Shown here piece after piece: positions 12,987-55,175 of a stretch of DNA of 64,000 nucleotides (positions within the stretch are counted from its first letter, which is position 1; every line of letters begins with the position of its first letter). Source of the stretch: Macrostomum lignano (Eukaryota). The notes below the pieces were generated by a model, which was given only the letters and a program-made list of their open reading frames with translations, was not told the origin of the DNA and made no database searches. Position numbers and translations under genes: made by a program. Location: contig NIVC01001518.1 in NCBI GenBank assembly GCA_002269645.1, positions 186,001 to 250,000 of the forward strand, read 5' to 3'.

Positions 12987-12992
12987 CTAGTG
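12987..12992 (+). other. 6-bp target-site duplication CTAGTG (left copy; right copy at 44132-44137)
   Basis: gttcCTAGTG|agtagaagg ... ccttctact|CTAGTGcaagcc; 6-bp TSDs are characteristic of Polinton integrases. Confidence 0.9.
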
Positions 12993-13893
12993 AGTAGAAG
13001 GCATGAGGGGGCTTTTGGGACAAAATTTTTCACGTCCTCCATAATTCCATTAAATCCATCTATATTATCCCCGACAGAATCAGAAAAAAAGGGGGGTCGC
13101 ACTCGCTCACAAAACGTCCTCCATAATCCCATTAAATCCATCCATATTATCCCTGACAGAATCAGAGCATAACAGGTGTCCTACTTGCTCCGAAAACTTC
13201 GAACATAATCCCATTAAATCCATCCATATTATTCCTGAATCAGAGCATAACAGGTGTCGCACTCGCTCACAAAACGTCATCCATAATCCTCCTTCCTCCA
13301 CGACAGAATCAGAGCATAACAAGTGTCCTACATCATCCACTGAAATCCACCCATAGCATCTTCGAAACAATCAGAAAAGAATCTGTATTCTTCTCCACAC
13401 ATTCAATTCGCAACGCATCCCAAAGATTTTAAATCATCAGCGCAGTGTCCTTACCCTTTGAAAAAAATTAAATTCTCAATAAAAATGTTTCCAGTTGTCT
13501 CTCCAGGTTCCTATTATACTCAGCCTCATCCATTGTACAAATCCAAGTACCGATGTAAACTAGAATGCAGCGAGTACATGAGAAAATATTGGCCCGATGT
13601 TCAAATCAATGTCCCTAATATTAATCTAGCTCTCCAAAGACATTGGTTTCATAAGTATGGAGTAACCTATGTAAAAGATTATGACAGCTACTATAACTTT
13701 GCAGAAATCATTAGGCAATTGTGATTTCTTACATTCTCTCAATGATCAACGTCAATACAAACTCTTCACCGTTGAAATCAACGCCCATCCCATCTTCAGT
13801 CTCAAACTGTAGCACAATCTCGTGAATCTCCTTATTACTCAATACAACTCTTTTCACTGGATTTGGTTTCTCTACCACCATCTGTCCTCCAGC
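12993..13893 (+). repeat. Left terminal inverted repeat (~900 bp) with internal repeats (ccataatcccattaaatccatccatattat...acagaatcagagcataacaggtgtc)
   Basis: Its reverse complement is found in pieces at 27597-27772, 29434-29486 and 43579-44131. Confidence 0.85.
13485..13724 (+). CDS. 79-aa Tyr-rich hypothetical protein encoded inside the TIR
   Basis: Homologous intact ORF at 26248-26487(-) differs by many synonymous changes; A-rich leader before the ATG. Confidence 0.75.
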   Translation: MFPVVSPGSYYTQPHPLYKSKYRCKLECSEYMRKYWPDVQINVPNINLALQRHWFHKYGVTYVKDYDSYYNFAEIIRQL

Positions 13894-14592
13894 AACAGAG
13901 TTGGAGATGTTGTACAAAATATTCGTTCGCTTTCCCTTAAATACCCAATCAAGACTGAGATTAGTTCTGATTAGAATATTCAAACCCTTTACAATGTCTG
14001 CTATATTGGGTGCTAAGAACAAACCGCGTACGTTTTCCCGGGCCATGATAACGGCCCCCGTCGCTTGAGTGACAGTCCGCGCTGTGGATTCTGCCTTATA
14101 AACTTTCTTCACGAATCCCAATTCCCTATACCAAGTGTCATCTTTAAACTCAACCTCCGCATCTTTGTGAACTTGCATGACCACTCTCATTACAGTGAGA
14201 TCATAGGTTAGTTTGACAGGGAACAATTTTTTATCTGGCTTACTCGCATCAGGTGTCTCAAAATGGCCTCTTTTAGTAAAGACGTTTTCTAGAAAGTAAT
14301 TGTAGGTATCCACACTTTGCGTGCTCACAGGGAATACCACAGGGTCTGCTGCTGCACCTTTCCAATTGTAATAAAACTTATTATTTGCTGCCGACACATT
14401 GGGAACGTTTGACCAACCAGTGAAGTCGTTAAGATAGACATGGTAATTAGCACCTGGATCCAGGCGAATCGCCTGCTCTAATTTTTGAATAAATATCCCG
14501 TTTGAGTCATTTATTCGCCCAGTTATTGTAATAGGAATGCTCTCCTTGGAGTGCGAAATAATATTATTTAGTCTTTCAGCAATCGCTTCCAT
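13729..14592 (-). CDS. Minor capsid protein (penton-like, single jelly roll)
   Basis: N-terminal F..WSNVPNV...NNKFYY and C-terminal F.TEDG..VDFNGEEFVLTL patterns typical of Polinton minor capsid proteins; adjacent to the MCP; intact 287 aa. Confidence 0.8.
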   Translation of the reverse strand: MEAIAERLNNIISHSKESIPITITGRINDSNGIFIQKLEQAIRLDPGANYHVYLNDFTGWSNVPNVSAANNKFYYNWKGAAADPVVFPVSTQSVDTYNYFLENVFTKRGHFETPDASKPDKKLFPVKLTYDLTVMRVVMQVHKDAEVEFKDDTWYRELGFVKKVYKAESTARTVTQATGAVIMARENVRGLFLAPNIADIVKGLNILIRTNLSLDWVFKGKRTNILYNISNSVAGGQMVVEKPNPVKRVVLSNKEIHEIVLQFETEDGMGVDFNGEEFVLTLIIERM

Positions 14593-14614
14593 TTTTTTTC
14601 ACATAAAAAAATAT

Positions 14615-15901
14615 TTAAACTTTACTGGATGAATTGTTGATCATGTTAAGCTTCACCTTCCTCTCAAATGCATAGATAATGTACAGGTCCACGGGTGTTG
14701 CGGTAGTCCTCTCAATGTTAGTCACGATATTCACAGGGCTGTTATCAGTAGGTATTTGTCTGGCAGACACATCAGCGCCAAACATCGGATATAGAGTTCC
14801 ATATTGAAGAGCAGTGATAGCAATTCCATTGTTCTCTTTCACAGCCAAGTCGACCAACTCACTATAAAATTTGCTAATCTTGTTCTGACTGAAATCTCCA
14901 TTTTGTGGCAGTGCAGGGTAAAGATTATCACTGATTTCATGCTGAATGGACCGCACGTCTCCATGCATGTAGCGTATAATGCTATTTGGGTTTCTCATAT
15001 TAATAATGATATACCTTGGATTGCTGCATGATCCCTCTTTAATGCAGATATTTGTTCTAGTTTCGTTTCGCTCATCTCGACACATGTAGGCTGTGTATGC
15101 AACATCAATGTCCTTCTCTATTGCCTTAAGATAATCCGCTTTTAGTGCAGTCTTTGGCTCAATGACTTCCAAATACAGCTCGATTCCGGTTAGCTTCACC
15201 TCCATCCTTGTGTGGTCCGCCCCAGTCCACAACACTCTACTGCGATCATCTCTAGTCAGTCTAAATGTGTAGCTAAAGTTACTAGTCAGTCGATTAAATG
15301 TATTACAGAATCCACTCATGAATCTCAATGGTACAAATACATCAACAGACCGATACTGCGGGTTCTTAGCAGCATCATCTGCACCTTGCAATGCATAGTT
15401 GTATCTCTTCTTCCTATTTTTATAACCACTGTCATTGATATCTCCTTCTTTTTCGTCTGCAATAAAACCCGCACCACTTCCCAATTGAATAAAATCAGGA
15501 TTCTCAATCAAACAATGAGCGTCATAGACAATTCCAAAGTTGGCGATTCGCTCCAACTCAGTGCTCCCATTCGATACACTAAACTCCTTGAACATGTACG
15601 CCCAAAAGTTACTGATCAGAGCCACATCCGCATCATGCTTGTCAACGTTAGCACGAGCCGCATCCACACCACCCTTTGTCTTGAATTGAAATGTCATATG
15701 GAAGCCGCTCTTAAGACTGTGCACACTAACCAAAGACGAACATCCATTGTATGTAAATGTCAGTGTTTGGCCAGGACCAAGATTAGTTTCATTCTGATTT
15801 TCCTGACTGGGAACTCTTACCTGAGTCGCTTTGATTGTGCTATCATCACTCAAAATAGGCTTGTTAATTTTGTAGAAAACTGGTGTCAGTGGGTCGTTCA
15901 T
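14615..15901 (-). CDS. Major capsid protein (double jelly roll, hexon-like)
   Basis: 428 aa, tandem with the penton gene; patterns VFVPLRF..GFC..F..L, F.LTRDD...L, LYP..P..GDF and YPMFG.DVS resemble Polinton MCPs. Confidence 0.8.
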   Translation of the reverse strand: MNDPLTPVFYKINKPILSDDSTIKATQVRVPSQENQNETNLGPGQTLTFTYNGCSSLVSVHSLKSGFHMTFQFKTKGGVDAARANVDKHDADVALISNFWAYMFKEFSVSNGSTELERIANFGIVYDAHCLIENPDFIQLGSGAGFIADEKEGDINDSGYKNRKKRYNYALQGADDAAKNPQYRSVDVFVPLRFMSGFCNTFNRLTSNFSYTFRLTRDDRSRVLWTGADHTRMEVKLTGIELYLEVIEPKTALKADYLKAIEKDIDVAYTAYMCRDERNETRTNICIKEGSCSNPRYIIINMRNPNSIIRYMHGDVRSIQHEISDNLYPALPQNGDFSQNKISKFYSELVDLAVKENNGIAITALQYGTLYPMFGADVSARQIPTDNSPVNIVTNIERTTATPVDLYIIYAFERKVKLNMINNSSSKV

Positions 15902-15931
15902 TTTTTAACTAAAAATAAAATAAAATAAGAA

Positions 15932-17296
15932 ATGAAGCGAAAAAGTACACAGCAGATATCTGAATTGGAGAAGCTAGCACAAGCAGAGAAACGAGTTACC
16001 GGGCTAATAAATAAGGAGCAACAATCCTACAATGAGTTTGTCCAAGCAGCCACAGAGTTTCATAAACCCGGGTATGGAGAAGCGAAGAAAAACATCGACA
16101 CTGTGAAGGAAGCAATTGATGATATTCAAGAGAGCCAATTGCAAAACACATTGGGTAAAATTCCATCTTCACCGGGACAACCACAGGCTCAGGAACCAGG
16201 ACAACCAGTGCAGATGAAAGTGACGGATAACTTTTTTGGCCCCGTAGTGGATGATGGAAAATATATATTTGGAATTAGCGCTTGGCGAAAAAATATTACC
16301 GGGGAACCGGCGGATTACAACCTTGAAGTGACAAAGGATGATATTTCAATCAATAAAGGCGCAAAAACTAAACGAATCCCCTTCACTCAAAGTTTACTCG
16401 ACTACATGACTAAAAATCAGGAAAAAATATCCGAGAAGCAATTAAAGAATTATAGAGATCTGGTTACCTTCGCTTTAGAGAGGGACATAGACATTCTCAA
16501 GAACAACGGTGTTTTGAAAGTTTTACATGAAAACAGGATTGACTTGAACAGGTTAAGAAAATACAAATACTTTAAACAATGGTTTGGTTTGCCGGATCAA
16601 GAAGAGGTCATAAGACAACAACAGCAGCAACCACAACAGCAGCAACCACAACAGCAACAACCAAAACAACAACTACAACAACCACAACAGCAGCAACCAC
16701 AAACACAACCACAACCACAACAACCTCCACCGCCACAGTAACAAATCACACCCGAACAAGTACTAGAAGCGCTTGAAAAAGCAGGGCCAAATGAGATTTC
16801 CCAGTACAGAAACCAGCGCCCAGATGAATGGCGACAATTAGAACAGTTCTCCCCAGAACGAATGAAGCGAATCAATGACAGAGTATTCACACCTCAACAA
16901 AGACAAGCGCCACATGACAGTTCCTCCTCTGACCAATCATTCGAATCACCTCCAAGCTCTTCCGGAAAAGGCATGCCTGAATTCTACAAGCGGTTAGCTG
17001 TTCTTCTAGGAGCGGCAAAGACTGGAATGAAAGATGAGAATAGAAAAGAGTTCGTTCATATCCTAGACAAAATGCTTGAGAGAAAATATATCGATAAAAG
17101 AGCAAGAGAACTTTTGCTTTCACGGTTTAACAAAAAAATAAATTTCTATTTAAAAAGATGCCAATTATTTTCGAAAAAGACATTGACAAATACTATGACA
17201 AAGAGGAACTTAATCTCATTAAACGCGGATCTGGACTTTTCCCTGCAGGCCACTATCCAAGAAAAGAACGCTCTGGGAATGGCCTTGCCGATTTGA
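15932..17296 (+). pseudogene. Polinton protein with Q/P-rich tract; ORFs 15932-16741 and 16862-17296 are one frame interrupted by a single TAA
   Basis: CCA CAG TAA CAA ATC continues in frame with no further stop into KRLAVLLGAAKTG...EF..ILDKMLE..YI, a motif type seen in conserved Polinton ORFs. The true 3' end is uncertain. Confidence 0.6.
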
Positions 17297-17538
17297 TCGC
17301 TCAGGGGGCCAAGATTTTTAAGGTCATTGGAGAGAACAAAGAGAACATCAAGAACGTTGCCGAAGCGGCTGGCAGTGTAGTCACAGCAGCCAAGAAGATT
17401 AAAGATACGGTTAATGAAACCCAGAAATCAATACCAGATATTCAACCCCTTGCACCGAGTGCAGATAGTGTCGATCCAGCCATCTACGCAAAGATGAGAG
17501 CTGAATATAAGAAAGGAGGCGGTTTTAAATTTGACTAA
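17158..17538 (+). CDS. Small basic putative virion core protein with Gly motifs (GSGL, GNGL, GGGF)
   Basis: Intact 126-aa ORF between capsid and ATPase genes; the Gly motifs resemble adenain-type cleavage sites (inference). Confidence 0.55.
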   Translation: MPIIFEKDIDKYYDKEELNLIKRGSGLFPAGHYPRKERSGNGLADLIAQGAKIFKVIGENKENIKNVAEAAGSVVTAAKKIKDTVNETQKSIPDIQPLAPSADSVDPAIYAKMRAEYKKGGGFKFD

Positions 17539-17733
17539 TTTGGTGCACCCTGACGGTAAAAGAGGTGTGAGGGTGTAGGACTAGTCGGATGTAGGACTAG
17601 TCGAAAAAAGACACACACAACCCGAAAAAAGACACACACATCCCGCAAAGAGACACACATACACATCCCGCAAAGAGACACACGCGTCTTAAATACACAA
17701 GTTTAAAAAGAAAAAGTTTTTTTACATAAAAAA

Positions 17734-18255
17734 ATGGACTTCACAAACGACTTTCATCCCCACTGGACACGCAATCAGATAAAATTTGCTCACAACGAGA
17801 TAATTCCAGGGCACTTCCGATGCATTGTTGTTGGCTCATCTGGGTCAGGGAAAACCTTCAGAGTTTTTAACATGCTCCTCAGACCTGGATTCCTCGATTA
17901 TGACACACTACATATCTATTCACCCACTCTGTATCAAGATGAGTATAAAATGCTAGTAGCGGGCCTACAGAACAAACTCAACAAGGAAGATATTATTCAA
18001 TGTTTTAGACATCAAAAAGACCTCAACAGCAACCCGGAAGTTGCAGCCACCGAACACGCAAAGCACATCCCAGACAATGAAAAATGGCAAAATATTAAAG
18101 TTTTCACTTATGGAGATCCACAGATAGATCCTAAAACTAAACTCTTACCTCAACCTGATGAACTAGAAAAGGGGAGAAAGCACCTGATTGTCTTTGATGA
18201 CTGCATGACCGGTCCCCAGAAACAGATAGAAAATTATTTCACCCAAACCCAATGA
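17734..18255 (+). pseudogene. A32/FtsK-like packaging ATPase, 3'-truncated
   Basis: Walker A VVGSSGSGKT and Walker B LIVFDD; the frame ends at YFTQTQ*, before the expected RH motif. Confidence 0.88.
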
Positions 18256-18404
18256 GATCCTGGCTTATCGGTGGTGTCAAAGTTCATGATGCCGCATTCC
18301 TTTCTTAGAGGAAAATCAGGCAGAGTGTCCCTCATAAATATTCCTCTAAAGTTTGGGATTTCCAGTTCGTTAGCCAAATCTTCAAGAAAGTTATTTGTTG
18401 TCAT
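18234..18404 (-). pseudogene. Adenain-like cysteine protease, N-terminal 56 aa only (not in the ORF track)
   Basis: MTTNNFLEDLANELEIPNFRGIFMRDTLPDFPLRKECGIMNFDTTDKPGSHWVWVK*: FRG.FMRD.LP, ECGI.N.D and GSHW (catalytic His) motifs. Confidence 0.85.
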
Positions 18405-18471
18405 TTTTTATGAGGTTTATTAAACTTTCTCTTAAACCTAAACCCAATCTCCTAATCTCCAGTGCCCGAAT

Positions 18472-21400
18472 CTAACCTCCACCTCCTAAGCCTAATTTCC
18501 GGTGCCCGAACGGTAGACTGTTAATATTGTCATCAAAAATGAATCTCTTGTTATCTGCACCTGACAGTCCAATCTCCTTTTGCTGAATTGTGTGAATAAT
18601 ATGGTTTTTAGATTGTAGCTTTGAGAACTCATGTGATGTCTTTTTGTTGCAATTCAAGGCGTCTCTGTATTCAGCTTCATTAATTTCCTTCCTAACCATA
18701 CGTTTCGGAATTCCCTTTGATTTTTTAATTGGGTCTGACGACTCACATTTTACAAAATAGGACTTTGCTCTCAACCCAATGAATTCAGTGATTATGTCAC
18801 CAGCAATCTCGTCCTTCATTTTCCCAATCACTTTCTTGTTAGTGGCGTCAAACACTTGATCGCCATTCTGTGTCCTGCAAGATTCATCATACTCAGACAA
18901 GTCAAACAAATCTTTTTGCTGCAGCATGTCCTGATAAATGTCTTCTGTTTGAATGTCCATAATAAAACTGTCTGTGTCGGTGTACAAGAGTTTCATTTTA
19001 TCCTTGTACTGCTGCTTCATGCCATAGAAGAACTGGTACATCAGACGTTTTGATTCGTCGAGAACAGTGACACCTGTATAGATCGGCTTGCGCAGCGTCA
19101 CCTTGGTTTTGTAAAATATGATCACACCTAAGTAGCTATTAAAGATATGGAGTTCTTTGAATGTTGGCTTTGACATATTTGCCTGAATAACAGCAGGCTC
19201 TGATGAGGTAACAAGTTTCAGGTTTGTTCTTTTCCGCTCTTTCTCAAGAGTCTTGCCATAGACAGAGTTGTTGGCTAACTTAAAGAGGTTCTTGTCAAAA
19301 TCGTTGGTTGCTTTGGTCCTAAACTGGGTATTCTTATCAATGTAGGGTTTCATCCACGCTTCCTCTGTAAATGTAAGAGCCCTGTGAACTTTGGTGACCC
19401 TGCAACCAAGTGAGATAAAATACTGAAGCAGTTTGTAATGGATTTTGTAACGTGTCTTGTTGTTTAGATTCTGTGTTAGTTTCTCTGTATGTTCTTTTTC
19501 TGTTCCTGACAGGTGCCAAGTTCCATTATTATCATTGGGAGTTTCGATTATTTTCGGGCACTTGATGTTCTCTGGGAAGGGTGGAAAGTCAGAGAAATAG
19601 TCGTGAAGCTCTGGTGGAATGTAAACATCAACCTCATAAATGGCAGCCAATGAAAAGTCCCACTTTAGTTCTGATGAGGGTAGCCATCGAAAATCTCTAA
19701 CTGGAATATCTTGACTCATCGCCCAACCGTAGAGATTATTAGCGTCCAAGTAAGTAATGTAGTTTGAGGGCTGCTCCTTATTGTAAGATTCAATGTAGGG
19801 ATTGTTTGCTTTTGCATACCTGTTAACACAAATTGAGATCCCCCCTCGCTTTGACGATTCGACAAAATTGTACATGTCAATATCTGTAAGAAGTTCAATG
19901 TACCAATCTGGATCTTGATCCCATTTCATTTTAAGCAAAGATTCCCAGCTAGGGGGCAGGCAGAGACACATAATGTGCTGGATCGAGGCCATATGCTGTG
20001 TACCAGGTGTATCTGAAGGTTTCAAACATATCAGCCAGCAGAAAAACATCTGTGAACAGGTAAAGCAGGTGATACTGGAAGAATTTTTTGACAATTAAAG
20101 TAATTATAGACATGCTTTGCGTGCTCATAGTCTTTGTCAGAGATTCCAGAGTCTGTTAGTTTTGAAAAGAACTTCTCCTGTGGTGGTAAACCTTCTTCAA
20201 ATACGTGATAACCAGTAATATTCTCATAGGGGTAGAAGCCTTTCTTTCTTAAAAGTTTAAATGATTCATCAGTGTTGTTAATTTTACTTGCAAACATCTT
20301 TGTATATGTACATTGTTCATCTTTTAGATTCTTGCTTAGTTCGTCTAGACTGGCAGCTAGAAATTGATATGAATCCTTCAGTCTTATTTTACCTGTACCC
20401 GAATTATCCTGTTTAATATCAACACACTTAAACTTCTCCTTGTTCTCTGCGATGCAATCAAGGTGTATGTCTGGAATCATGCCGATTTTTTCAACTATTA
20501 AATGCATGTCATAGTTCTTTGCGTTGTGACAAAATATCGTTAGATCATGAATGTTCGATTTTAGCTTTAGATTACAGGTGTTATGCGCTGCACCTCTAAA
20601 TTTCCCAGTAAAGTGGCAGTGGTCTCTAACGGTCGGGTTTTTAATATTAGTGCAAGTTAAATGTTTCCTGCAGATGTGGCAATGAGTTGCTGATAGGAAA
20701 TTGTTTTCATCCTCCTCAGTCATCATTATTGGAACAGGTTGAAGGGTGCTAATCACTCTTTGCAACTCTAACATTCTGGCAATAAACTGCTCCACACACT
20801 GCTCTCCAAAGAAATAATTATACTCAACAAGTCCTTTTGTAGTAATAAAGGCATATGCTACTGAATTGGGGACATGTTTTTGAGTTTGAGTTTGTTTTTG
20901 AGTTTGTTTTTGTGTTTCCGGCATGATTGAGCATTCGAAATCAGCATATACAACAAATGGGAGCTTCTCCATCTTGTGATAGTTCTTAAACCGGAGATAC
21001 TTCTTTTCAGCTGAAGGAAGAGAGCAGTTTGTTGGGTGATCCTCGCATGATAATTCATGCTCTGCTAGTTTTTCAAAGCGTTCAGGTCCACTGTAATGCT
21101 TAAGGCACAAGCGGCAGATGGCAACAGCCTCGTGATGATTATTCAACTGCTTGTGAATGAGTCTTGAAAGATCTTTAATCCAAACATAGTGAGCCTCCTC
21201 TAGTAAATTACCAATCACTAGAAGATCCACTTCAGTCGGCCTTTTCCCCTCAGGATCTAAAACGTCTTTGCTACATCTGACCGGTTGAACTTTCTCAGTT
21301 TTTTCACTCCACTCAAAGACTGTGATTCTAATTTTGTTATTAAACACTTCTTCTAGCTTTGGGATCTGAGAGATCGCCAAGCCTCCTTTGTCAAACCTGA

Positions 21401-22307
21401 TTCCCTTCTTTTCGCATTCGATGAGATAGTAGTTGAAATAATTTTGATAATTTGAGGTTCTTTCGGGGTGGTGAGGGACACTATCATAAAGAAGTGCAGA
21501 AAGAACTGCCCATAGAGCACAGCAATTGTCTTTATTTTTAACATTTATGCAAGCTTTTTTACCGGCTAGCTTATGCGGGAGCTCTATATAAGAGGAGGCT
21601 TTAAGTGGGTCATATTTCATGACCATGACAGTCGCTCTTTGAATCCCTCCCACGACCCATCCGGAACCTCTGGATGTAAACGCTTCAATTTTCTTAGTGA
21701 CATCTTGAAGGAAAGGATCCAGTGTGTCTGTTGGGGTGAATGGCTTTGCCTTTGTTGTCATGTAATACTCGAGATGCTCAGTGGGTTTCGCAGGCATATA
21801 AAACGCAATCTTGAATTATATCTGTAGTTTAAAGGTCTTGCGTGTTTTGAGTGTGTGATCAACAACTGATTGGATGCTGTCTTTATAGTCGTAGATGTTT
21901 GCGGTGGTATCCTTAATTGGGATTGTGTACTCTATGTAATGTTCTGTAAACTTCCTCTCTTCAATGGCAAGCTCCGACTCTTTTAAATGGATTAATTGCT
22001 CTAATTTCTCTTGTTCCTGCTTATTTTGTGGGTACTTTGCTTTTTCACCAGTGAGAGTTTCGTATTTGTTAACTAAGTTGCGACTCCTCTCTTGGTGTTC
22101 CTTTGCAGGATTTTTTATAGGCGCATACTGGTTGGATTCTAATTGATTGATGATTTCCAACTGTTTTTCATAGCTTCCCAGGTGACCAGGGTCGGTGTTG
22201 AACTTTTGTTTGCATGCTTCTCTTAGTGAATTACTTTTGTCTTAAAATGAGACGCCTTTTGAAAAATGTTTGTTGACTAAATCTTTTGCTGGATTAGCTT
22301 TTGGCAT
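18472..22307 (-). pseudogene. pPolB: Protein-primed family B DNA polymerase, disrupted
   Basis: ExoI YADFE, ExoII HNAKNYD, ExoIII YHLLYLFTD (in a third frame), DANNLYGWAM, KLANNSVYGK and YTDTDS; RDHCHFTG..RGAAH..CN zinc motif. Frameshifts at ~19955, ~20088 and ~22255; in-frame stops at 21816 and near 22240. Confidence 0.95.
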
Positions 22308-22433
22308 TTTTTTCTCTAAAATAAAGAAAAAATTTTTGAGGGTGACCACCCTGATAGAAAAGTTGAACTGTTTCTACATCCTATAAGTAGCGCTAGGTTT
22401 ATAAAGCTGGATAAAGTGGGGTTTTAAACCTCA

Positions 22434-22879
22434 TCACATCCGCATTATTGTAAACCCAGCATTGTGCAGTGTCATGATGGCTTTGACAATGTCAGACTTG
22501 CTTACAGAATTTTCATTCTCACAATCATCACGATCGGGGCAGCCCTCTCCTGCCTTAATTGTTATACCTTTGTCTCTTGCAATCTTTTGCAATTCAAGCT
22601 GGTGGGCCCTATCATTCCCAGCTTTAACAGCAGTTGCTACACCTCCAGCTACACCACCTGCGGCACTTACAGCGCCTGCAATGATCGGAATAAGAGCTGC
22701 TAATGGTAGGATTCCTCCTGACTTTTCATCTGTGATGTTGTGTCTTTGCTCATTACACTCAAGTATTTGCTGTGTGGGATCAACCTTAACTTTGACACCT
22801 TTAATTGATATAAGATCTGGTTCTTTGATTCAATGATTTTATTGAGTTTATTGATGGTTCTAGTTTCAATCTTTGTCAT
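22434..22879 (-). pseudogene. pX/pVI-like precursor with GG|ILPLAALIP amphipathic peptide; one frameshift near 22830 (not in the ORF track)
   Basis: Minus frame reads DEKSGGILPLAALIPIIAGAVSAAGGVAGGVATAVKAG...KIARDKG...FTIMRM*; the ATG at 22879 is in another frame. Confidence 0.7.
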
Positions 22880-22895
22880 TTTTTATTTTAATATT

Positions 22896-23890
22896 TTAAT
22901 TAATTTCCGTGTCAGCTGGTATCACTAGGAGTTCAGCTCTAGTGAATGACCGCGTGGGGGATTTAGGGTTAAAGGCCTGAGATAAAAAGTAATAGTCACC
23001 GGAGTCGGAGGTAAAATGTCTGTCTATTTTATGTACATCAAGGCTGAAGTATGGATCTGTAGCTCTTCTTTTGGTGTCCTTCTCTAGCTCTCCAGGTAGA
23101 TATAAAAAGCGTAGAAACTCAGAGTTTGTCAGTATGTATGGTGATTCAACTCCTGGAAGCTTAGGGTAGTTCGAGGTGTCTGTTCTATGAGATGACTTAA
23201 GTTCGACAGTGTCTTGTTTAATTGCATGGGATGGTTTCAATCCAGTCATGCGTGTGACTTCATTGTTCAGTTGCTCTATAACAGTGGGGAGCCGGTCTGA
23301 CCACTTGTATAGTACTGACCACTTTTTAGTTTCAGCTCTTCAGCTGTCTGCTTAGTGAATAGCCTCTTGGCTAGAGTTAGATTGAATCTTTCCACAAAAG
23401 CCTGGTCTCTGTGTAGCTCAGTTCTTCCATAGCGAATTTTTGTGTCATGCTTATGTAGAAGTGATTTCACTGCACCCATGAATTCATTACCCGGGTCCGT
23501 CATAAAGATTTCAGGGTAACTAAGGGGTGAGTTTTTATAAATATCTTGAAGGGCGGCTGCAACTGCTTCTGATTGTTTAGTCTTCAGCGGTCTTGCTTCC
23601 TTATAGCGGGAGGCAATATCTATAACTGTGAGAGCATACTTGTAACCTGAGTCATTGGGGAGAAACAATAAGTCTGCTTGGTGTGCCTCATTGGGTTTAT
23701 AGATGTTAAAGTGAGGTCTCGTAAATTGAACAGGTGGGAAATAGACTTAAAAGACAGCCTGCTTAGAGAGCCACTTTTCTACTTTAGCTTTTGGTTCCTT
23801 ACTTAGTTCTGCGAGTTTGGTGACGGCATTTTTTCCTACAAAGAATCCTTTGTCACTGTAGTAGAGTTTTTTAAGTTTCTGGTCTGTCAT
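22896..23890 (-). pseudogene. int: Retroviral-like DDE integrase of the Polinton
   Basis: HQADL(L)FLP, TVIDIASRY, MTDPGNEF and VERFNLT; premature TAA near 23747 and a frameshift near 23300. Confidence 0.92.
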
Positions 23891-23920
23891 TTTTTAAAAA
23901 AGAAAGTTTTAAATAAAATA

Positions 23921-24370
23921 ATGCAACGCTCTGGTGGTAAAATAGATTCACATGGACTGATAGAAAAGCTTCCTCATCCAAACAAAGGCTGGACAGTTCC
24001 AGGGTACAAATATTGTGGGCCTTTGAATCCACTTGAAATACAGTTAGATAAAAACAATAATCCAAATCCTGGGCATGAGCCTGTGAACGAGCTAGACTCT
24101 GTCTGCATGTGGCATGACATCAAGTATAGAGATTTTCCTGAGGAGAAGAATCGGTGGGACAAAGAAATGCTTAGGAGATTAGACCATATGGGGGCTTCAA
24201 GCGGATTTCGTGAGTCGATTGCTAGGAAATTAGTCAAGGCGGTTATTTTTGGAAAGACAAAATTGGGGTTGGGGGTGTACGCCGAGGGCGGGGTGGGCTT
24301 TGTATTGCACGCACCAAGTAAAAAACTAGGCAGACTGCTGAAAGAGCTGGGGGTTGAGAGAGCAGAATGA
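23921..24370 (+). CDS. Phospholipase A2 domain protein of parvovirus VP1u type
   Basis: VPGYKYCGP (Ca-binding loop), PVNELD...C..HDIKY (catalytic HD) and D..ML..L; intact 149 aa. Confidence 0.85.
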   Translation: MQRSGGKIDSHGLIEKLPHPNKGWTVPGYKYCGPLNPLEIQLDKNNNPNPGHEPVNELDSVCMWHDIKYRDFPEEKNRWDKEMLRRLDHMGASSGFRESIARKLVKAVIFGKTKLGLGVYAEGGVGFVLHAPSKKLGRLLKELGVERAE

Positions 24371-24400
24371 TTCAAGCAAGAATATTCAGCTCATTCTTTT

Positions 24401-24505
24401 GAGAGACAACTGGAAACATTTTTAGAGAAATTATTTTTTTCGGAGGATGAGCACCCTGGGTTTAGGTAATTAAAGTCTTTGGGATCTGGTTTCGCGAATT
24501 GAATG
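24401..24505 (-). repeat. Degenerate relic of the inner TIR segment around the TIR-ORF start
   Basis: gagagacaactggaaacatt...aaagtctttgggatct...gaattgaatg matches 26470-26584 and 43608-43711. Confidence 0.65.
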
Positions 24506-24644
24506 ATCGACCTTACTATATGTACTAAATTAAAGGAAGACTTCCAAAATTTATATTAATAATTAACTATTAAAAAACAATATATTTGAAATTAAATAAG
24601 ATAAAAATTTAAATTAAGAGAAATACCGAGAATGTTCAGTGTAG

Positions 24645-24895: not shown

Positions 24896-24932
24896 TTAAC
24901 TTAACATTCAAGAGTAAATAAAATAAATAATG

Positions 24933-25773: not shown

Positions 25774-25840
25774 GACAAGGCGGAGCGGACCCTGCCGGCG
25801 GGGTAGGCGGGCTGGGGCGAGGGGCGGTGTGAATCGGCTG

Positions 25841-34981: not shown

Positions 34982-35160
34982 CTAATGACCACAGTGTGGA
35001 AGCGTAGCACCAGACTTGATTTAGATTGCATAACCATATTCTCAACTTTAATTGAGACTGATGCTGACTTGCCTGGGAAATTGATTATGTCATAACTGCT
35101 TCGTGAGTGAGTGTTGAATTATATGAGTGCTACAATTTCATTTATAAATTCAATAAGATC

Positions 35161-35222
35161 TAGCCTAGAAGTGAACAGACTGGACTGCTAATGCAGCGAC
35201 CTGGGTTCGAATCTTAGTAGTG
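35161..35222 (+). ncRNA. Degenerate tRNA-like sequence (SINE-head/pseudo-tRNA, GCT anticodon loop)
   Basis: A-box-like TAGCCTAG, anticodon arm ctgga-CTGCTAA-tgcag and T arm ctggg-TTCGAAT-cttag; no good acceptor stem. Confidence 0.5.
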
Positions 35223-35272
35223 AAAATTTTTTTATTAAAAGCTTTTATTAAAAAAACAATAAAGGACTAAAG

Positions 35273-38200
35273 GCGTCATGTAAAAAATCATAGAAGCGTC
35301 ATCTAAACAATCATAGAAGCGTCATGAAACAATCATAGAAGCGTCGTGTAAAAATCATAGAAGCGTCATATAAAAATCATAGAAGCGTCATGTAAACAAT
35401 CATAGAAGCGTCATGAAACAATCATAGAAGCGTCATGTAAAAATCATAGAAGCGTCATGTAAAAATCATAGAAGCGTCATGTAAAAAATCATAGAAGCGT
35501 CATGAAACAATCATAGAAGCGTCGTGTAAAAATCATAGAAGCGTCATGTAAAAATCATAGAAGCGTCATCTAAACAATCATAGAAGCGTCATGAAACAAT
35601 CATAGAAGCGTCATGTAAACAATCATAGAAGCGTCATGTAAAATCATACAATCGTCCTGCCAAAATCGTAGAAGCGTCATGTAAACAATCATAGAAGCGT
35701 CATGTAAAAATCATAGAAGCGTCATGAAACAATCATAGAAGCGTCGTGTAAAAATCATAGAAGCGTCATGTAAAAATCATAGAAGCGTCATGTAAACAAT
35801 CATAGAAGCGTCATGTCAAAATCATAGAAGCGTCATGTAAACAATCATAGAAGCGTCATGTCAAAATCATAGAAGCGTCATGTAAACAATCATAGAAGCG
35901 TCATGTCAAAATCATAGAAGCGTCATGTAAACAATCATAGAAGCGTCATGAAACAATCATAGAAGCGTCGTGTAAAAATCATAGAAGCGTCATATAAAAA
36001 TCATAGAAGCGTCATGTAAACAATCATAAAAGCGTCATGTAAAAATCATAGAAGCGTCATGTAAACAATCATAGAAGCGTCATGTCAAAATCATAGAAGC
36101 GTCATGTAAAAAATCATAGAAGCGTCATGAAACAATCATAGAAGCGTCGTGTAAAAATCATAGAAGCGTCATGTAAAAATCATAGAAGCGTCATCTAAAC
36201 AATCATAGAAGCGTCATGAAACAATCATAGAAGCGTCATGTAAACAATCATAGAAGCGTCATGAAACAATCATAGAAGCGTCATGTAAACAATCATAGAA
36301 GCGTGATGTAAAAAATCATAGAAGCGTCATGTAAAAATCATAGAAGCGTCATGAAACAATCATAGAAGCGTCGTGTAAAAATCATAGAAGCGTCATGTAA
36401 AAATCATAGAAGCGTCATGTAAACAATCATAGAAGCGTCATGTAAAAATCATAGAAGCGTCATGTAAACAATCATAGAAGCGTCATGTCAAAATCATAGA
36501 AGCGTCATGTAAACAATCATAGAAGCGTCATGTCAAAATCATAGAAGCGTCATGTAAACAATCATAGAAGCGTCATGAAACAATCATAGAAGCGTCATGT
36601 AAACAATCATAGAAGCGTCATGAAACAATCATAGAAGCGTCATGTAAACAATCATAGAAGCGTCATGTAAAAATCATAGAAGCGTCATTTAAACAATCAT
36701 AGAAGCGTCATGTAAAAAATTGTAGAAGCGTCATGTAAAAAATCCTTGAAGCGTCATGTAAAAATCATAGAAGCGTCATGTAAAAATCATAGAAGCGTCA
36801 TGTAAACAATCCTAGAAGCGTCATGTAAACAATCATAGAAGCGCCATGTAAACAATCCTAGAAGCGTCATGTAAACAATCATAGAAGCGTCATGTAAACA
36901 ATCATAGAAACGTCATGTAAAAATCATAAAAGCGTCATGTAAAAATCATAGAAGCGTCATGTAAAATCATAGAATCGTCCTGCCAAAATCGTAGAAGCGT
37001 CATGTAAAAAATCCTTGAAGCGTCATGTAAACAATCATAGAAGCGTCATGAAACAATCATAGAAGCGTCATGTAAACAATCATAGAAGCGTCATGTCAAA
37101 ATCATAGAAGCGTCATGTAAACAATCATAGAAGCGTCATGAAACAATCATAGAAGCGTCGTGTAAAAATCATAGAAGCGTCATATAAAAATCATAGAAGC
37201 GTCATGTAAACAATCATAGAAGCGTCATGAAACAATCATAGAAGCGTCATGTAAAAATCATAGAAGCGTCATGTAAAAATCATAGAAGCGTCATGTAAAA
37301 AATATTAGAAGCGTCATGAAACAATCATAGAAGCGTCGTGTAAAAATCATAGAAGCGTCATGTAAAAATCATAGAAGTGTCATCTAAACAATCATAGAAG
37401 CGTCATGAAACAATCATAGAAGCGTCATGTAAACAATCATAGAAGCGTCATGAAACAATCATAGAAGCGTCATGTAAACAATCATAGAAGCGTGATGTAA
37501 AAAATCATAGAAGCGTCATGTAAAAATCATAGAAGCGTCATGAAACAATCATAGAAGCGTCGTGTAAAAATCATAGAAGCGTCATGTAAAAATCATAGAA
37601 GCGTCATGTAAACAATCATAGAAGCGTCATGTAAAAATCATAGAAGCGTCATGTAAACAATCATAGAAGCGTCATGTCAAAATCATAGAAGCGTCATGTA
37701 AACAATCATAGAAGCGTCATGTCAAAATCATAGAAGCGTCATGTAAACAATCATAGAAGCGTCATGAAACAATCATAGAAGCGTCATGTAAACAATCATA
37801 GAAGCGTCATGAAACAATCATAGAAGCGTCATGTAAACAATCATAGAAGCGTCATGTCAAAATCATAGAAGCGTCATTTAAACAATCATAGAAGCGTCAT
37901 GTAAAAAAATGTAGAAGCGTCATGTAAAAAATCCTTGAAGCGTCATGTAAAAATCATAGAAGCGTCATGTAAAAATCATAGAAGCGTCATGAAACAATCA
38001 TAGAAGCGTCATGTAAACAATCATAGAAGCGCCATGTAAACAATCCTAGAAGCGTCATGTAAACAATCATAGAAGCGTCATGTAAACAATCATAGAAGCG
38101 TCATGTAAAAATCATAAAAGCGTCATGTAAAAATCATAGAAGCGTCATGTAAAATCATAGAATCGTCCTGCCAAAATCGTAGAAGCGTCATGTAAAAAAT

Positions 38201-40790
38201 CCTTGAAGCGTCATGTAAAAATCATAGAAGCGTCATGAAACAATCATAGAAGCGTCATGTAAACAATCATAGAAGCGTCATGTAAACAATCCTAGAAGCG
38301 TCATGTAAACAATCCTAGAAGCGTCATGTAAACAATCATAGAAGCGTCATGTAAACAATCCTAGAAGCGTCATGTAAACAATCATAGAAGCGTCATGTAA
38401 ACAATCCTAGAAGCGCCATGTAAAAATCATAAAAGCGTCATGTAAACAATCATTCAAGCGTCATTTAAACAATCGTAGAAGCGTCATGTAAACAATCATA
38501 GAAGCGTCATGTAAAAATCATAGAAGCGTCATGAAACAATCATAGAAGCGTCATGTAAAAAATCATAGAAGCGTCATGTAAAAAATCATAGAAGCGTCAT
38601 GTAAAAATCATAGAAGCGTCATGTAAAATCGTAGAATCGTCCTGCCAAAATCGTAGAAGCGTCATGTAAAAAAATCATAGAAGCGTCATGTAAAAATCAT
38701 AGAAGCGTCATGTAAAATCACAGAATCGTCCTGCCAAAATCGTAGAAGCGTCATGTAAAAAATCATCAAAGCGTCATGTAAAAAATCATCAAAGCGTCGT
38801 GTAAAAATCATAGTAGCGTCATGTAAAAATCATAGTAGCATCATGTAAAAAATCATAGAAGCGTCATGTAAAAATCGTAGAAGCGTCATGTAAAAATCAT
38901 AGAAGCGTTATGTAAAAATGATAGAAGCGTCATATAAAAAATCATAGAAGCGTCATGTAAACAATCATAGAAGCGTCATATAAAAATCATAGAAGCGTCA
39001 TGTAAAAATCATAGAAGCGTCATGTAAAATCATAGAAGCGTCATGTAAAATCGTAGAAGCGTCATGTAAAAAATCATCAAAGCGTCATGTAAAAAATCAT
39101 AAAAGCGTCATGTAAAAATCATAGAAGCGTCATGTAAAATCGTAGAATCGTCCTGCCAAAATCGTAGAAGCGTCATGTAAAAAATCATAGAAGCGTCATG
39201 TAAAAATCATAGAAGCGTCATGTAAAATCATACAATCGTCCTGCCAAAATCGTAGAAGCGTCATGTAAACAATCATAGAAGCGTCATGTAAACAATCATA
39301 GAAGCGTCATAAAACAATCATAGAAGCGTCATGTAAAAATCATAGAAGCGTCATGTAAACAATCATAGAAGCGTTGTGTAAAAATCAGAGAAGCGTCATG
39401 TAAACAATCATAGAAGCGTCATGTAAAAATCATAGAAGCGTCATGTAAAAATCATAGAAGCGTCATGAAACAATCATAGAAGCGTCATGTAAAAATCATA
39501 GAAGCGTCATGTAAAAATCATAGAAGCGTCATGTAAACAATCATAGAAGCGTCATGAAACAATCATAGAAGCGCCATGTAAACAATCATAGAAGCGTCAT
39601 GTAAACAATCATAGAAGCGTCATGAAACAATCATAGAAGCGCCATGTAAAAATCATAAAAGCGTCATGTAAAAATCATAGAAGCGTCATGTCAAAATCAT
39701 AGAATCTTCCTGCCAAAATCGTAGAAGCGTCATGTAAAAAATCCTTGAAGCGTCATGTAAACAATCATAGAAGCGTCATGAAACAATCATAGAAGCGTCA
39801 TGTAAACAATCATAGAAGCGTCATGTAAACAATCATAGAAGCGTCATGTAAACAATCATAGAAGCGCCATGTAAAAATCATAAAAGCGTCATGTAAACAA
39901 TCATTCAAGCGTCATTTAAACAATCATAGAAGCGTCATGTAAACAAGCATAGAAGAATGTAAACAATCATAGAAGCGTCATGTAAAAATCATAGAAGCGT
40001 CATGAAACAATCTTAGAAGCGTCATGTAAAAAATCATAGAAGCGTCATGTAAAAAATCATAGAAGCGTCATGTAAAAATCATAGAAGCGTCATGTAAAAT
40101 CGTAGAATCGTCCTGCCAAAATCGTAGAAGCGTCATGTAAAAAATCATAGAAGCGTCATGTAAAAATCATAGAAGCGTCATGTAAAATCATAGAATCGTC
40201 CTGCCAAAATCGTAGAAGCGTCATGTAAAAAATCATCAAAGCGTCATGTAAAAAATCATAGAAGCGTCATGTAAAAATCATAGTAGCGTCATGTAAAAAA
40301 TCATAGAAGCGTCATGTAAAAATCGTAGAAGCGTCATGTAAAAATCATAGAAGCGTTATGTAAAAATGATAGAAGCGTCATATAAAAAATCATAGAAGCG
40401 TCATGTAAAAAATCATAGAAGCGTCATGAAAAAATCATAGAAGCGTCATGTAAACAATCATAGAAGCGTCATGTAAAAAATCATAGAAGCGTCATGTAAA
40501 AATTATAGAAGCGTCAAGAAAAAATCATAGAAGCGTCATGTAAAAAATCATAGAAGCGTCATGAAAAAATCATAGAAGCGTCATGTAAACAATCATAGAA
40601 GCGTCATGTAAAAATTATAGAAGCGTCAAGAAAAAATCATAGAAGCGTCATGTAAATAATCATAGAAGCGTCATGTAAAAATTATAGAAGCGTCAAGAAA
40701 AAATCAGAGAAGCGTCATGTAAAAAATCATAGAAGCGTCATGTTAAAATCATAGAAGCGTCATGAAAAAATCATAGAAGCCTCATTTAAA
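35273..40790. repeat. ~20-22-bp satellite (AATCATAGAAGCGTCATGTAAA), roughly 260 units
   Basis: Direct reading; degenerates towards ~41150. Confidence 0.97.
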
Positions 40791-40969
40791 AACTAATGAA
40801 AGTGTCATTTAAAAAATTAAGAAGCATCATGGTAGAATAAAAGAAGCGTCATGTCAGACATGAAGGGTGTCATGTAAAAATAAATGCAGCTATAATGCTG
40901 TGCTGGGAAGAATTACTGAGACGTCAAGGCTCTCAGAGAATAACTGAGATTACGGGGGGTTGCTGAGAT

Positions 40970-41760
40970 GTCAAAGCAAAAGTCAGAAGCTACTTCAAAG
41001 TTCATGTACTTTACTCAATTTTTTTATTACATTATTTGTTGTCTCGCCACGGGGGGCGCTGATAGAAGAGGAGTCATGTAAAAAATAAAAGTAGCACTAT
41101 GTATACATAAAAGAAAAGTCATGTCGAAGTTAAAAGATTCATTTGGGAATTGCTATGATGTCAAAGCTTGGAGGGAATCGTTACAGTGCTGTGATTCTTA
41201 AAGAAGGAATCACTAAAATGTCAAGGCTTAGGGGAGAAGAATTGCTGAGATTCAAGGCTTTAGGTTGGGTTAAAGTTAGGTTTAGGTCAGGTGTGGGTTG
41301 AGGGTTATATTTTATCGGGTTTCAAGGTTAACGGGGGATTTTTCAGATTTCAAGGTTTATGGAGGCCATCGCTGACATGTCAAGGCTTACGGGGGGAATA
41401 GCTGAGATTTCAAGGCTCACGGGGGTATAAATGAGATTTCAAAGCTAAATTCAGAAGCTACATGTAAACAATCATGTAAAGTTTATTGAAAACTTTTTAT
41501 TACATTATTTGATGCCTCGTCAGGGGAGGGATCGCTGATAAAAAAAGCGTAATGTAAAAAATAAAAGAAGCTTCATGTCGAAGTTAAGAGATTCATTTGG
41601 GAATCCCTACGATGTCGAGGCTTGCAGGAAATCGCTATAATGCTGTAGCAGTGCTATAATGACTCTTAGAGAGAATTACTGAAATGTCAATGCTTTAGGG
41701 TTAGGTTAGGGTTAGGGTTAGGGTTAGGGTTAGGGTTAGGCTAGGGTTAGGGTTAGAAGG
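40970..41760. repeat. Diverged ~475-bp tandem duplication, each unit followed by a TTAGGG-like tract
   Basis: catgtcgaagttaa.agattcatttgggaat occurs at ~41120 and ~41574. Confidence 0.65.
41695..41756 (+). repeat. Interstitial (TTAGGG)n, ~10 units
   Basis: ttagggttaggttagggttagggttaggg... Confidence 0.9.
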
Positions 41761-43578
41761 TTGACAGATTTTTTAGATTTCCAAGGCTTATTGGGGGCAT
41801 TGCTGAGATGTCAAGGGGGCGAGTTGATATGTTAAAGCTTGTGGTGGGGAATTACTGACATGTCAAGGCTTACAATGTTTGACAGGAGATTTTTTAAGAT
41901 TTCAAGGATACATGTAGCTTATTAAAAAAACGTGTAGCTATTGCATTTCTTTGGCTCCCCAACGGGGGGCGTAGATTGCTAGTCAAAAGCTAAACGTTTG
42001 TATGAGTCGTTTTAAAAATGGGGCAGTTTTAAGTGATACATTTTAACTATTATTTGTAATTTTAAATTCCATATGTTACTTTCTGATTGCCACAATGAGG
42101 TTCGTATCGTTGAGTTGGGACAAATACACGCGGTGTGAGTCTGGCGGAAAGTAGAAGTTGGTTAATTACGCAGCAGTCAAGGATAACGGAAAAAACATTT
42201 CACACTTTAATCTTTCAATTATTTTCGGCTTACTCATATTCACAATGCTACAAGTAAACCACTGATTATTATAAATAAGTTAAAATACGCTTGTAAATTA
42301 TTATTTAAATTTATTTTATTAAAGATTACAAAATGACTATAGTATGCTTGCAACGATTTCTAAATCTATTATTGAAATACTCCTATGTTATTGAGTGCAT
42401 TTACGCTCGTACTTTTGGCTCTTTTGCTGGTGCTAAAATGTCTATGTTCCTGTGCATACATTTGATACTATAGCCTACGAGCGTACATTTCCGATGTCCC
42501 AAGGGAACATTCCTTGTTTAGAGTCTGTAGTATTTGCTCGAAGAGGAAACGAAATAAAGAGGCCGGGAGAAAAGAGAAGCAAGCAAGCACAAGCAGCCAA
42601 AAAAGCGGTAAAAAATACGGAAAATGAGAACTGGAATTTTTTTTCACGTCGAGATGCTATGCTGATTGTTATTGTTCAGTAGTCCTTGGCTTCAATTCTA
42701 AATCTTGAACACAGCTCTTAGTTCTCTTTGACTCAGCCTTTATTCGATTCGGGGGTGCGGGGTTGTTTGTAGAACAAGAGGAGAAAGGATCCCTTCGCTA
42801 GACATGCGGGGTTGCGGGCCGCGGCAGAAATGGAAGTGCCATTAAAAAACACATTCTGCTTTGCTCTTTGTCCTGCTGGGCAAGTCTTTCGGAATCATTT
42901 TCTATATGGTCTGTGCTGTGGCTTCCCACCATGTCCTATACACCATGTCTATGTGGTCTATTAGTTCTACGAGTATAAATCACACGCCCGACATGGCCTA
43001 TATGTATGAACATGATGCACATTGCACACATATACACGTCTAGCCACTTGTTATGTATAAATTGAAAGATCCTCGATTTTATATAAAATGAAAATTTGAA
43101 CTGCGCGCGTTTGTTTGGCAGTACTACCTAGTATAAGTAGCACTTACGGATAGTTATAGATATGACAAATTACAAAAAATGCAGAATAAATCACAAAAAA
43201 AATTGCAATGCTAATTCAGATCAGATTATTGAATATGCCACCAATACTAAAAATCAATACGTAACAAAGCAATATAAAAGCATTCGTTCATTAACTTTTA
43301 ACCTATGACTACAGATGTAATCAATTATATTGAATATTACGATTTCGTCACCCCAACGCTCAAGGGTCTCGGGGCGGATAGCTGGGCGAACTTACTCTTA
43401 CTGAATAGAAATAGTTTTAAATGGCTGTTAAAAGTCCGAAAAGTTTTTAAAGAAGTGCATTAACTGTAAAAGAGCACTCAGGATGCCTTAGAATTATAAA
43501 AGCCATCACGGTTTTGGGGCGCACTACTTGGACTCCTGGGCGCCCGGCGCCTCCAGTCGCCTCTAAAAATTTTCCCAC

Positions 43579-44131
43579 TGGGTGAGGCTGAGTATAATAG
43601 GAACCTGGAGAGACAACTGGAAACATTTTTATTGAGAATTTAATTTTTTTCAAAGGGTAAGGACCCTGCGCTGATGATTTAAAATCTTTGGGATGCGTTG
43701 CGAATTGAATGTGTGGAGAAGAATACAGATTCTTTTCTGATTGTTTCGAAGATGCTATGGGTGGATGTCAGTGGATGATGTAGGACACTTGTTATGCTCT
43801 GATTCTGTCGTGGAGGAAGGAGGATAGGTTAGGAGGATTATGGATGACGTTTTGTGAGCGAGTGCGACACCTGTTATGCTCTGATTCAGGAATAATATGG
43901 ATGGATTTAATGGGATTATGTTCGAAGTTTTCGGAGCAAGTAGGACACCTGTTATGCTCTGATTCTGTCAGGGATAATATGGATGGATTTAATGGGATTA
44001 TGGAGGGCGTTTTGTGAGCGAGTGCGACCCCCCTTCTTTTCTGATTCTGTCGGGGATAATATAGATGGATTTAATGGAATTATGGAGGACGTGAAAAATT
44101 TTTTCCCAAAAGCCCCCTCATGCCTTCTACT
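43579..44131 (-). repeat. Right TIR, outer piece (inverted copy of 12993-13532)
   Basis: Near-identical to the left TIR; ends CTACT followed by the TSD. Confidence 0.93.
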
Positions 44132-45069
44132 CTAGTGCAAGCCAATTTCAGCCGGCTAAACTTTTCTAACTTCCACTTGTGCAATCAATTGAGCGTGGGA
44201 AGCACAATGAACTCCTGCTGAACTGGTCTTGCTGTCCTGAGCCGATCGGCTGATTGTTGCGTACTGCTGAGATCGTTGATGCTGCTGCTGCTGATGGTGC
44301 GAGCCGAGCTACGTTGGGTGTCTTAGACAAAGGCTAGCGTCCGCAACGTTGGGGCCTACTTCATAACTTTGGTCCCCTCGCTCCAGGCTCACATTGGGTC
44401 CTCTCGTTGCCGTCCAGCCTCGCCAGGTGACTCGACCAGGTGACCTAGCCTATCCCCGTTCCTAGACTTATGAGCATTTTCTTATGGCTCATAAAAACAT
44501 TCCGCATTGATTCCAGTTGGCGCAGCGAATTCTGTTTATTGTGCTCCTGAGCCAAAAGCTAGTTTCATTAATCTCAAACCAAATTAACTAGAAGTTTTTA
44601 ATTTTTAATTTAAATTTTTTGGTTAACGGCTAAGCGAGTTGAAAAACTCAATGGAATTTCCTATTCCAACAGAGCATACCACCCAGTGACTAAATAAGGA
44701 ATTTCGCTGTGTTAGGGCAGAAACGAATCTATTTTCAAAGGAAATTGATCGAAATATTTTTGTCTAACTATTTTATTTTATACAACAGGGGCAAAGCACT
44801 TTTATAGCGCGAATTTAAAGTAATGATGAGAAAGTTATGATGCCCGTTGAATGCTCAGTGGCTCACGAAAGCCGGCATGATGAATTTTGGGAATTTTCCA
44901 TGACTGAATCATTGCATGTTCTTAGACTGAATGCCCAGGGGTAGGATGACGTTCTGCGCCGGGGCACCCCAGACATTTAAACTGCATTCGAAAACTGCTT
45001 AACCTCTTCCTGCCTATCCACAATTCAAAATTTGTCTGTTTGGTAAGAATTCAGATCTTTTATATGCAG

Positions 45070-48700: not shown

Positions 48701-48739
48701 GAATTAAATCCTTCCGGGAGACAGATGGAGTCAGGAAGA

Positions 48740-55172: not shown

Positions 55173-55175
55173 TTT

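Follow-up and report, generated by a model that had tools for sequence, protein, structure and literature searches.

A Polinton locus of 31 kb in Macrostomum lignano: most likely a normal-sized element enlarged by later insertions

Polintons, or Mavericks, end in AGTAG..CTACT, carry terminal inverted repeats (TIRs) of several hundred base pairs and a 6-bp target-site duplication (TSD), and in animals share a set of core genes: pPolB, an rve integrase, a double-jelly-roll (DJR) capsid protein, an A32 ATPase, a protease and a PLA2-like gene. Intact vertebrate copies are described as 12.7-24.6 kb long, with TIRs of 46-1,447 bp and a 6-bp TSD, and most copies as decayed (PMC8097293). All of the general features, together with a core of ~15.5 kb, recur in an element that we call Polinton A. 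It lies in a window of 64,000 nt (the whole stretch that we analysed: positions 186001-250000 of contig NIVC01001518.1, C1518 for short) of the 764-Mb Macrostomum lignano assembly, of which other contigs are given below as C-numbers. Polinton A departs from the usual plan in having an internal third TIR, in lacking ~2.1 kb of its body, and in having a right TIR that is split by ~15.8 kb of other elements. The original prediction was of a Polinton spanning 31 kb. The ends of the locus do lie that far apart; as the size of the mobile unit, however, 31 kb is not borne out by the evidence, and that unit was ~15.5 kb; most likely the 31 kb reflect post-integration accretion on a normal-sized Polinton, that is, ordinary nested decay.

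Mobile elements inside an integrated virus-like element, solo repeats included, have been described elsewhere: EMALE virophages contain nested Ngaro elements and solo repeats, and their TIRs are said to regenerate after truncation (PMC8547959), while Polinton-like viruses of cryptophytes carry nested retroelements (PMC12220804). What sets our window apart from the nests in those accounts is that the guests, in the TIR, are a solo long terminal repeat (LTR), a CMC transposon, a Helitron-like repeat and likely a second Polinton. Several Polinton pieces and lone TIRs are likewise reported at the eri-6/7 locus of C. elegans, where recombination between copies was inferred (10.1101/2024.01.15.575659); in the window, by contrast, no effect on a host gene is shown. 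Nematode Mavericks share a variable arm of 2-5 kb beside one TIR, and a DNA transposon (MULE) has been modelled as inserting into a Maverick; their cargo is described as lying between TIR and integrase, across species, whereas the content at 27-44 kb of the window belongs to a single locus and breaks the TIR (10.1101/2022.07.12.499685). Gene-containing TIRs and LINE cargo are described for butterfly polintons (10.1101/2025.02.07.637071).

Outer ends of Polinton A and its divided right TIR

The integration junctions of Polinton A are 12993 and 44131, not 26952. The terminus AGTAGA starts at 12993 directly after CTAGTG, and TCTACT ends at 44131 directly before a second CTAGTG; as had been claimed, the two outer TIRs thus share a 6-bp flank with their ends 31 kb apart, and the middle TIR, which ends at 26952 and is followed by CGTCTG, does not. 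Among the 11 other two-ended Polinton copies that we compared (C462, whose contig ends inside the TIR, was excluded), ten have perfect 6-bp TSDs and one has a TSD matching at 5/6 positions.

The right flank of Polinton A is a dispersed repeat (45 matches, the best 40 of 156 candidates being scored), and its paralogues supply the empty-site form. In all 11 that were fetched, the 21-mer of the left flank and a single hexamer stand directly before CAAGCC, the start of the right flank, and therefore the two flanks were once contiguous. That hexamer is TTAGTG, one base different from CTAGTG. Accordingly, the predicted empty site is present in paralogous form, and no orthologous allele was seen: among the best 40 of 140 candidates the left flank (9950-12290) matched only the window and a 500-bp repeat, and the distal right flank matched two paralogues, 84-85% identical. 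Pairing the nearest TIRs mis-sizes Polintons; TSDs and paralogous empty sites locate their true ends.

Several other repeats crowd the left flank. An element end, TAGTG, lies 21 bp to the left of Polinton A and severs the remainder of the host repeat; 12296-12971 contains the arms of a fold-back repeat (12299-12531 and 12592-12874); and the 500-bp repeat (11651-12148) occurs at many loci as inverted pairs 2-4 kb apart, and is likely the TIR of another DNA transposon.

The far TIR is also the best partner of the left TIR. The far TIR aligns with the left TIR at 99% over 302 nt and 97% over 257 nt. When the first 536 bp of the left TIR, including its AG..CT-type end motif, were ranked against 54 termini (the left TIR itself among them), the far TIR was the closest of the 53 others (0.991, five mismatches), followed by a terminus at 0.940; the median of the 52 remaining termini was 0.833, and the middle TIR scored 0.815 (79% in a gapped alignment of 755 columns). 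Could the CTAGTG match have arisen by chance, the two ends belonging to unrelated insertions 31 kb apart? Only the large number of termini in the genome speaks for this. We regard it as scarcely credible, since a hexamer match at one given place has a chance probability of ~2.2e-4 (P ~2e-4 per site), the host repeat is split exactly at both ends, and the far TIR is the best partner of the left one; the split of the host repeat refutes chance unless a misjoined contig happens to imitate it.

Another key observation concerns what lies inward of the far TIR. It continues as two further pieces (27597-27772 and 29434-29486), and the three pieces, correctly ordered and oriented, together reproduce 12993-13893 in inverted form at 97-98%. 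Most of the 'enclosed' material therefore interrupts the TIR itself. Without the inserts the core measures 15,505 bp, a normal size for its Polinton family (14.7-17.2 kb): the 11 two-ended copies span 14,663-16,714 bp, and a copy at C5061 spans 17,153 bp.

The border between TIR and body (CAATTG, 13716-13723) is a hot spot, with 60-980 bp of extra sequence in C2192, C462, C980 and C869; the solo LTR described below occupies the mirrored counterpart of this site.

Repeats inserted in the right TIR

Independent repeats that interrupt the right TIR make up some 15.8 of the 17.2 kb beyond 26952; each is bounded by ends of its own and has dispersed relatives (Table 1). The innermost, foreseen as an LTR-like insert, is real. 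The same LTR is flanked by a 4-bp duplication (AATA/AATA) at C732, and at C667 a pair of copies brackets a 3.5-kb interior that is non-coding, with no gag/pol-sized open reading frame (ORF); we therefore identify the insert as a solo LTR, which has the TG..CA ends, the 4-6 bp TSD and the paired copies elsewhere that such an identification calls for.

Further out lies a 14.1-kb DNA transposon that resembles the CMC clade (EnSpm/Mirage/Chapaev), for which the C(2)C and H(3-4)H motifs of the DDE transposase, and the termini, have been given (PMC12730594). Its transposase translation has CSYC and HAILH, in keeping with C(2)C and H(3)H; Transposase_21 is found in 10-42% of the members of its nearest Atlas clusters (0.94-0.96), and a Pfam search of the transposase gave no match at E 0.01. 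The divergent partner gene is kept upstream of the transposase, on the minus strand, in 7/7 relatives. The right terminus, CCCACTGGG (43582), recurs as the end of an element at C709 and C573. The left part, from 29507, matches an element at C19 and C746 that starts with CCCTGTGGG 130 bp earlier; in the window a 20-bp filler that contains an 11-nt fold-back stands in place of these ~130 bp and of ~0.14 kb of TIR, so that the left end and the TSD are lost. Because 41995-43414 is without a relative (it matched only itself, 1/1 candidates), we can only infer that the left and right parts form a single CMC element. The transposase ORF of the predicted two-gene CACTA module is real, but the element is CMC/EnSpm-like with CCC..GGG ends, not a strict EnSpm/CACTA transposon, which would have 5'-CAC..GTG-3' termini and a TSD of 2-3 bp. 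A hAT identity, suggested by CAGTG/CACTG, was dropped: the true end is CCCACTGGG and the transposase is CMC-like.

The CMC transposon itself houses a high-copy repeat. Non-autonomous Helitrons are characterized by a 3' hairpin followed by CTRR, by insertion between A and T, and by the lack of a TSD; a 5' TC terminus and a RepHel partner are further features. Judging by its 3' end, we take 34992-41982 to be Helitron-like: in all 12 listed 3' ends a hairpin is followed by CTAG and then T, and in the window the unit stands between A and T. The same 5' breakpoint context recurs in 10/10 other copies of the satellite unit, and TTAGGG runs are present in 9/9 other checked copies of the repeat. The 5.5 kb of satellite and the telomeric repeats that had been noted in the unit are thus confirmed, as parts of this repeat.

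Bearing in mind that the solo LTR and the CMC transposon sit inside the right TIR, these inserts likely arrived after integration. Whether the extra material was acquired later or moved as cargo, left undecided in the original prediction, is therefore largely answerable, in favour of later acquisition. That the whole 31 kb moved as a single Polinton with its cargo is very improbable. The TSD and the intact outer termini would fit such a unit, and Mavericks do carry cargo genes (10.1101/2022.07.12.499685). Here, however, the cargo interrupts the TIR and has ends of its own, and 31 kb is about twice the length of any copy compared. Nor was a second copy of the insert combination, at another locus with a different TSD, found: 41995-43414 has no second match, the 29487 junction occurs only at the window (11/11 scored candidates), two further searches were swamped by repeats (best 40 of 1110 and best 40 of 1667 candidates), and the best other matches of the transposase share only 51-65% protein identity with it. 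The apparent 31-kb cargo-carrying Polinton is thereby removed: its cargo is most likely a later insertion into the TIR.

The orphan TIR and a second Polinton

We next turn to the TIR that ends at 26952. The sequence from 18244 to 26952 is collinear at 94% with copies at C211, C819 and C3895, all of which likewise terminate in a TIR at that position; the C211 and C819 copies have both ends, each with its own TSD. What follows (26953-27574) appears to be Polinton DNA that has been interrupted: in its homologue at C1178, CGTCT continues from unrelated upstream sequence, and a 150-bp part of it adjoins the right TIR in six other copies. The right terminus of the second element, which we call Polinton B, thus borders directly on Polinton-type DNA that has been interrupted, an arrangement to be expected from insertion of B into the arm of A and loss of B's left part. 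The orphan TIR most likely belongs to such a second Polinton, of another subfamily, nested here with its left part lost. We read 26953-27574 as Polinton-type because a diverged integrase-like stretch (46-48%) lies ~2 kb upstream of its homologue at C292 and C1810. The candidate that this segment is plain host DNA, present without TIRs at C292, C1810 and C934, is disfavoured, although the case against it is weak.

Polintons of this genome do insert into each other: there is one intact case and two or three fragmentary ones, among strongly mosaic copies. At C5061 (9217-26369) a whole Polinton of 17,153 bp, with TACACA on both sides, lies in the polymerase region of another Polinton in the same orientation; a further Polinton terminus is found at position 1814 of that contig. 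At C3908 (48954-56000) a Polinton left end runs into the right arm and decayed TIR of another copy, then into two short termini, after which it resumes, an arrangement that resembles that of the window. Polinton-like DNA stands in the outer flank of 6 of 56 distinct termini (the window's middle TIR among them), in a sample biased by the choice of searches. A small literature search found no description of Polinton-in-Polinton nesting. Such self-insertion is a concrete way in which modules could be swapped and Polinton arms shuffled. A cluster of Polinton fragments is also present at C1178 (136000-143600), where one terminus is inserted 195 bp past the homologue of 26953-27574 and a copy of the same LTR family lies nearby.

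We hypothesize that the locus arose by nesting in place followed by deletion, a reading that we consider probable: Polinton A is bounded by 12993 and 44131, the LTR and CMC inserts came later into its TIR, and the end at 26952 is a remnant of B. A normal-sized Polinton A with matched ends of 901 bp would first have integrated into the host repeat at CTAGTG, at the junctions seen today. Polinton B would then have entered A's right arm at CGTCTG in the same orientation, leaving the junction that we observe. A deletion or recombination between the two bodies would have removed the middle of A and, from B, the left target copy and the left end. This may have happened at 18243, where the junction is 2.1 kb short; a single deletion there could explain both the gap and the lost end of B, although mosaicism prevents proof. 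Finally, an LTR element would have inserted in A's right TIR, where the solo LTR to which it was reduced now lies; a CMC transposon would have landed farther out, its left end and ~0.14 kb of TIR being lost subsequently; and the Helitron-like repeat would have entered the CMC transposon at the position it now occupies, the order of these last events being partly conjectural.

A possible but unlikely alternative is that the 15.5-kb core, internal TIR included, formed before integration at CTAGTG, and that only the LTR, CMC and satellite inserts came later. Replication might have run past the right end into a neighbouring Polinton, with the right end rebuilt from the left, or nesting and recombination might have taken place on free genomes. 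The core would then be a snapshot of Polinton arm growth, a doubtful proposal in which 0.6 kb of a neighbouring Polinton was captured, the right TIR rebuilt and a three-TIR genome integrated; earlier rounds of such growth would have left the inner-TIR relic (24401-24505) and the extended right ends that six other copies show. The normal size of the core is in keeping with this, and the right end, preceded by a 22-bp filler, repeats ~170 bp more of the left end than the TIR usually includes, a pattern that a template switch would leave. A similar piece with a 70-bp extension occurs in six other copies and the relic in four, and TIR regeneration has been inferred for truncated virophage elements (PMC8547959). 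On the other hand, this route requires a donor, and the 26952/26953 junction was found in none of the 25/25 scored candidates besides the window; nesting in place, for which C5061 provides a precedent, calls for no additional mobilisation.

Read-derived contigs from four runs (three studies) carry 26925-27255 or 26925-27116 without a mismatch, and so cross the junction at 26952/26953. We considered whether, the outer ends being real, two nested Polinton bodies were collapsed or misjoined by the assembler, the true locus holding B whole (~47 kb) and the orphan TIR having its partner. The family has hundreds of bodies that are 95-100% alike, and one element seems to be split between C2627 and C3167, which share the flank CCTCGG; since these look like one split element, collapse inside a Polinton body is conceivable. 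Furthermore, none of the 32 of 15,340 pieces listed from the four runs bridges 18243, a gap that in itself proves nothing. Against this stand the 2.1-kb-short junction at 18243, which is not seamless and is unique among the best 40 of 508 candidates, and the fact that a misjoin cannot create a TSD, empty-site continuity or a private TIR match. We judge such an assembly error to be distinctly improbable. After the far TIR, those of the termini in question (C2627:8802 and C3167:99038), probably of one element split by the assembler, come closest to the left TIR of the window (94%).

Several observations weigh against nesting in place. B's left target copy is gone, so the nesting is seen only indirectly, and no clean switch from A to B can be placed because all copies are mosaic. 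TIRs that differ are in themselves no proof of two elements, since two of the 11 two-ended copies (C2847 and C1151) are flanked by TSDs and yet have ends only 84-86% alike. The two inner pieces of the right TIR match other copies nearly as well as they match the left end (97.7% vs 98.3%), and neither the 22-bp filler nor a TIR that reaches as far as 13893 (901 bp) is seen at any other locus. As for the reads, the bridging contigs extend for 28 letters into the TIR, short of the bar of 31; one of the four runs may be the assembly's own source; and there is no read support for 18243, 43582 or 44131, the contigs having been compared with 12880-30200 only, a stretch outside which 43582 and 44131 fall.

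The mosaicism is pronounced: in a comparison of 13536-26250 with 18 copies, blocks of 95-100% and 45-75% identity alternate between copies, with switches concentrated around 15.9-18.2 kb and 23.1-24.4 kb. Against this background neither tile identity nor mismatch counts could locate the switch from A to B; from ~24000 the arm is C211/C3895-like. C2847, C1151 and C869 combine perfect 6-bp duplications with TIR pairs 84-93% alike, which suggests exchange of ends between copies.

Polinton body and neighbouring sequence

The Polinton body contains both pPolB and an rve integrase, with both frames split in the assembly, as well as capsid, ATPase and protease genes; comparison with C819 shows the last two to be cut at the 18243 junction. 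The DNA missing there comprises the end of the ATPase gene, two ORFs and part of the protease ORF. With ~2.1 kb gone, the right TIR in three pieces and ~0.14 kb of TIR lost, this is not an intact Polinton, and the copy as assembled is broken and likely immobile. A Pfam search of the arm ORFs returned no family.

Table 1. Features of the Polinton A locus (window coordinates)
Feature	Position	Strand	Remarks
Left TSD, CTAGTG	12987-12992	+	within dispersed host repeat
Polinton A left end	12993-13893	+	~730-bp family TIR and ~170 bp of adjoining ORF; all 901 bp mirrored at right end
Polinton body	13729-24391	.	Pfam-marked, 13.7-24.4 kb
DJR capsid ORF	14615-15904		DJR E 1.3e-5, under Pfam curated cut-off
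A32 ATPase, cut	17707-18255		A32 E 6.7e-4, under Pfam curated cut-off
Junction	18243-18244	.	without ~2.05-2.17 kb found in other copies
pPolB pieces	18472-21815		DNA_pol_B_2 E 6e-5, under Pfam curated cut-off
Protein-X-like ORF	22434-22829
rve integrase piece	23276-23746		rve E 2e-10
PLA2-like ORF	23807-24370
Inner-TIR relic, short	24401-24505	-	~79-80% to outer TIRs; common to C211/C819/C3895 subfamily
Right-arm segment with minus-strand ORFs	24506-26249	.	96-97% identical in C211, C819, C3895
Orphan right TIR (Polinton B, most likely)	26250-26952	-	79-82% to left TIR
Polinton-type arm sequence	26953-27574	.	broken at start by B terminus; uninterrupted at C1178 (83%)
22-bp filler	27575-27596	.	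at switch to inverted left-end copy; no source found among loci compared
Right TIR, inner piece	27597-27772	-	inverse of ~13718-13893; 98.3%, 3 mismatches in 176
Solo LTR, TG..CA, 1661 bp	27773-29433	.	4-bp duplication CAAT on both sides
Right TIR, middle piece	29434-29486	-	inverse of 13669-13721; 98.1%, 1 mismatch in 53
CMC/EnSpm-type DNA transposon	29487-43582	.	14.1 kb; right terminus CCCACTGGG
Partner gene of CMC-type transposon	~30014-32600	-
CMC-type transposase ORF	32963-34789		600 aa
Helitron-like repeat	34992-41982	+	high-copy, 5'-truncated; 3' end hairpin and CTAG, between A and T
22-bp satellite	35273-40854		249 copies; inside Helitron-like repeat
TTAGGG tract	41695-41756		x10.7; inside Helitron-like repeat
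Right TIR, outer piece	43583-44131	-	vs left TIR: 5 substitutions and one 13-nt indel
Right TSD, CTAGTG	44132-44137	+	host repeat runs on to ~44493

To the right of the locus, 45070-56013 is a long satellite block: a 19-bp unit (x191) and the 8-bp GGGAGACA (x611) are followed by arrays of 71-, 26- and 29-bp units. Beyond it, on the plus strand, an open frame of 762 aa (57560-59848) has 15 Ephrin_rec_like and 7 NCD3G cysteine-rich repeats, and is likely an exon of a host surface protein.

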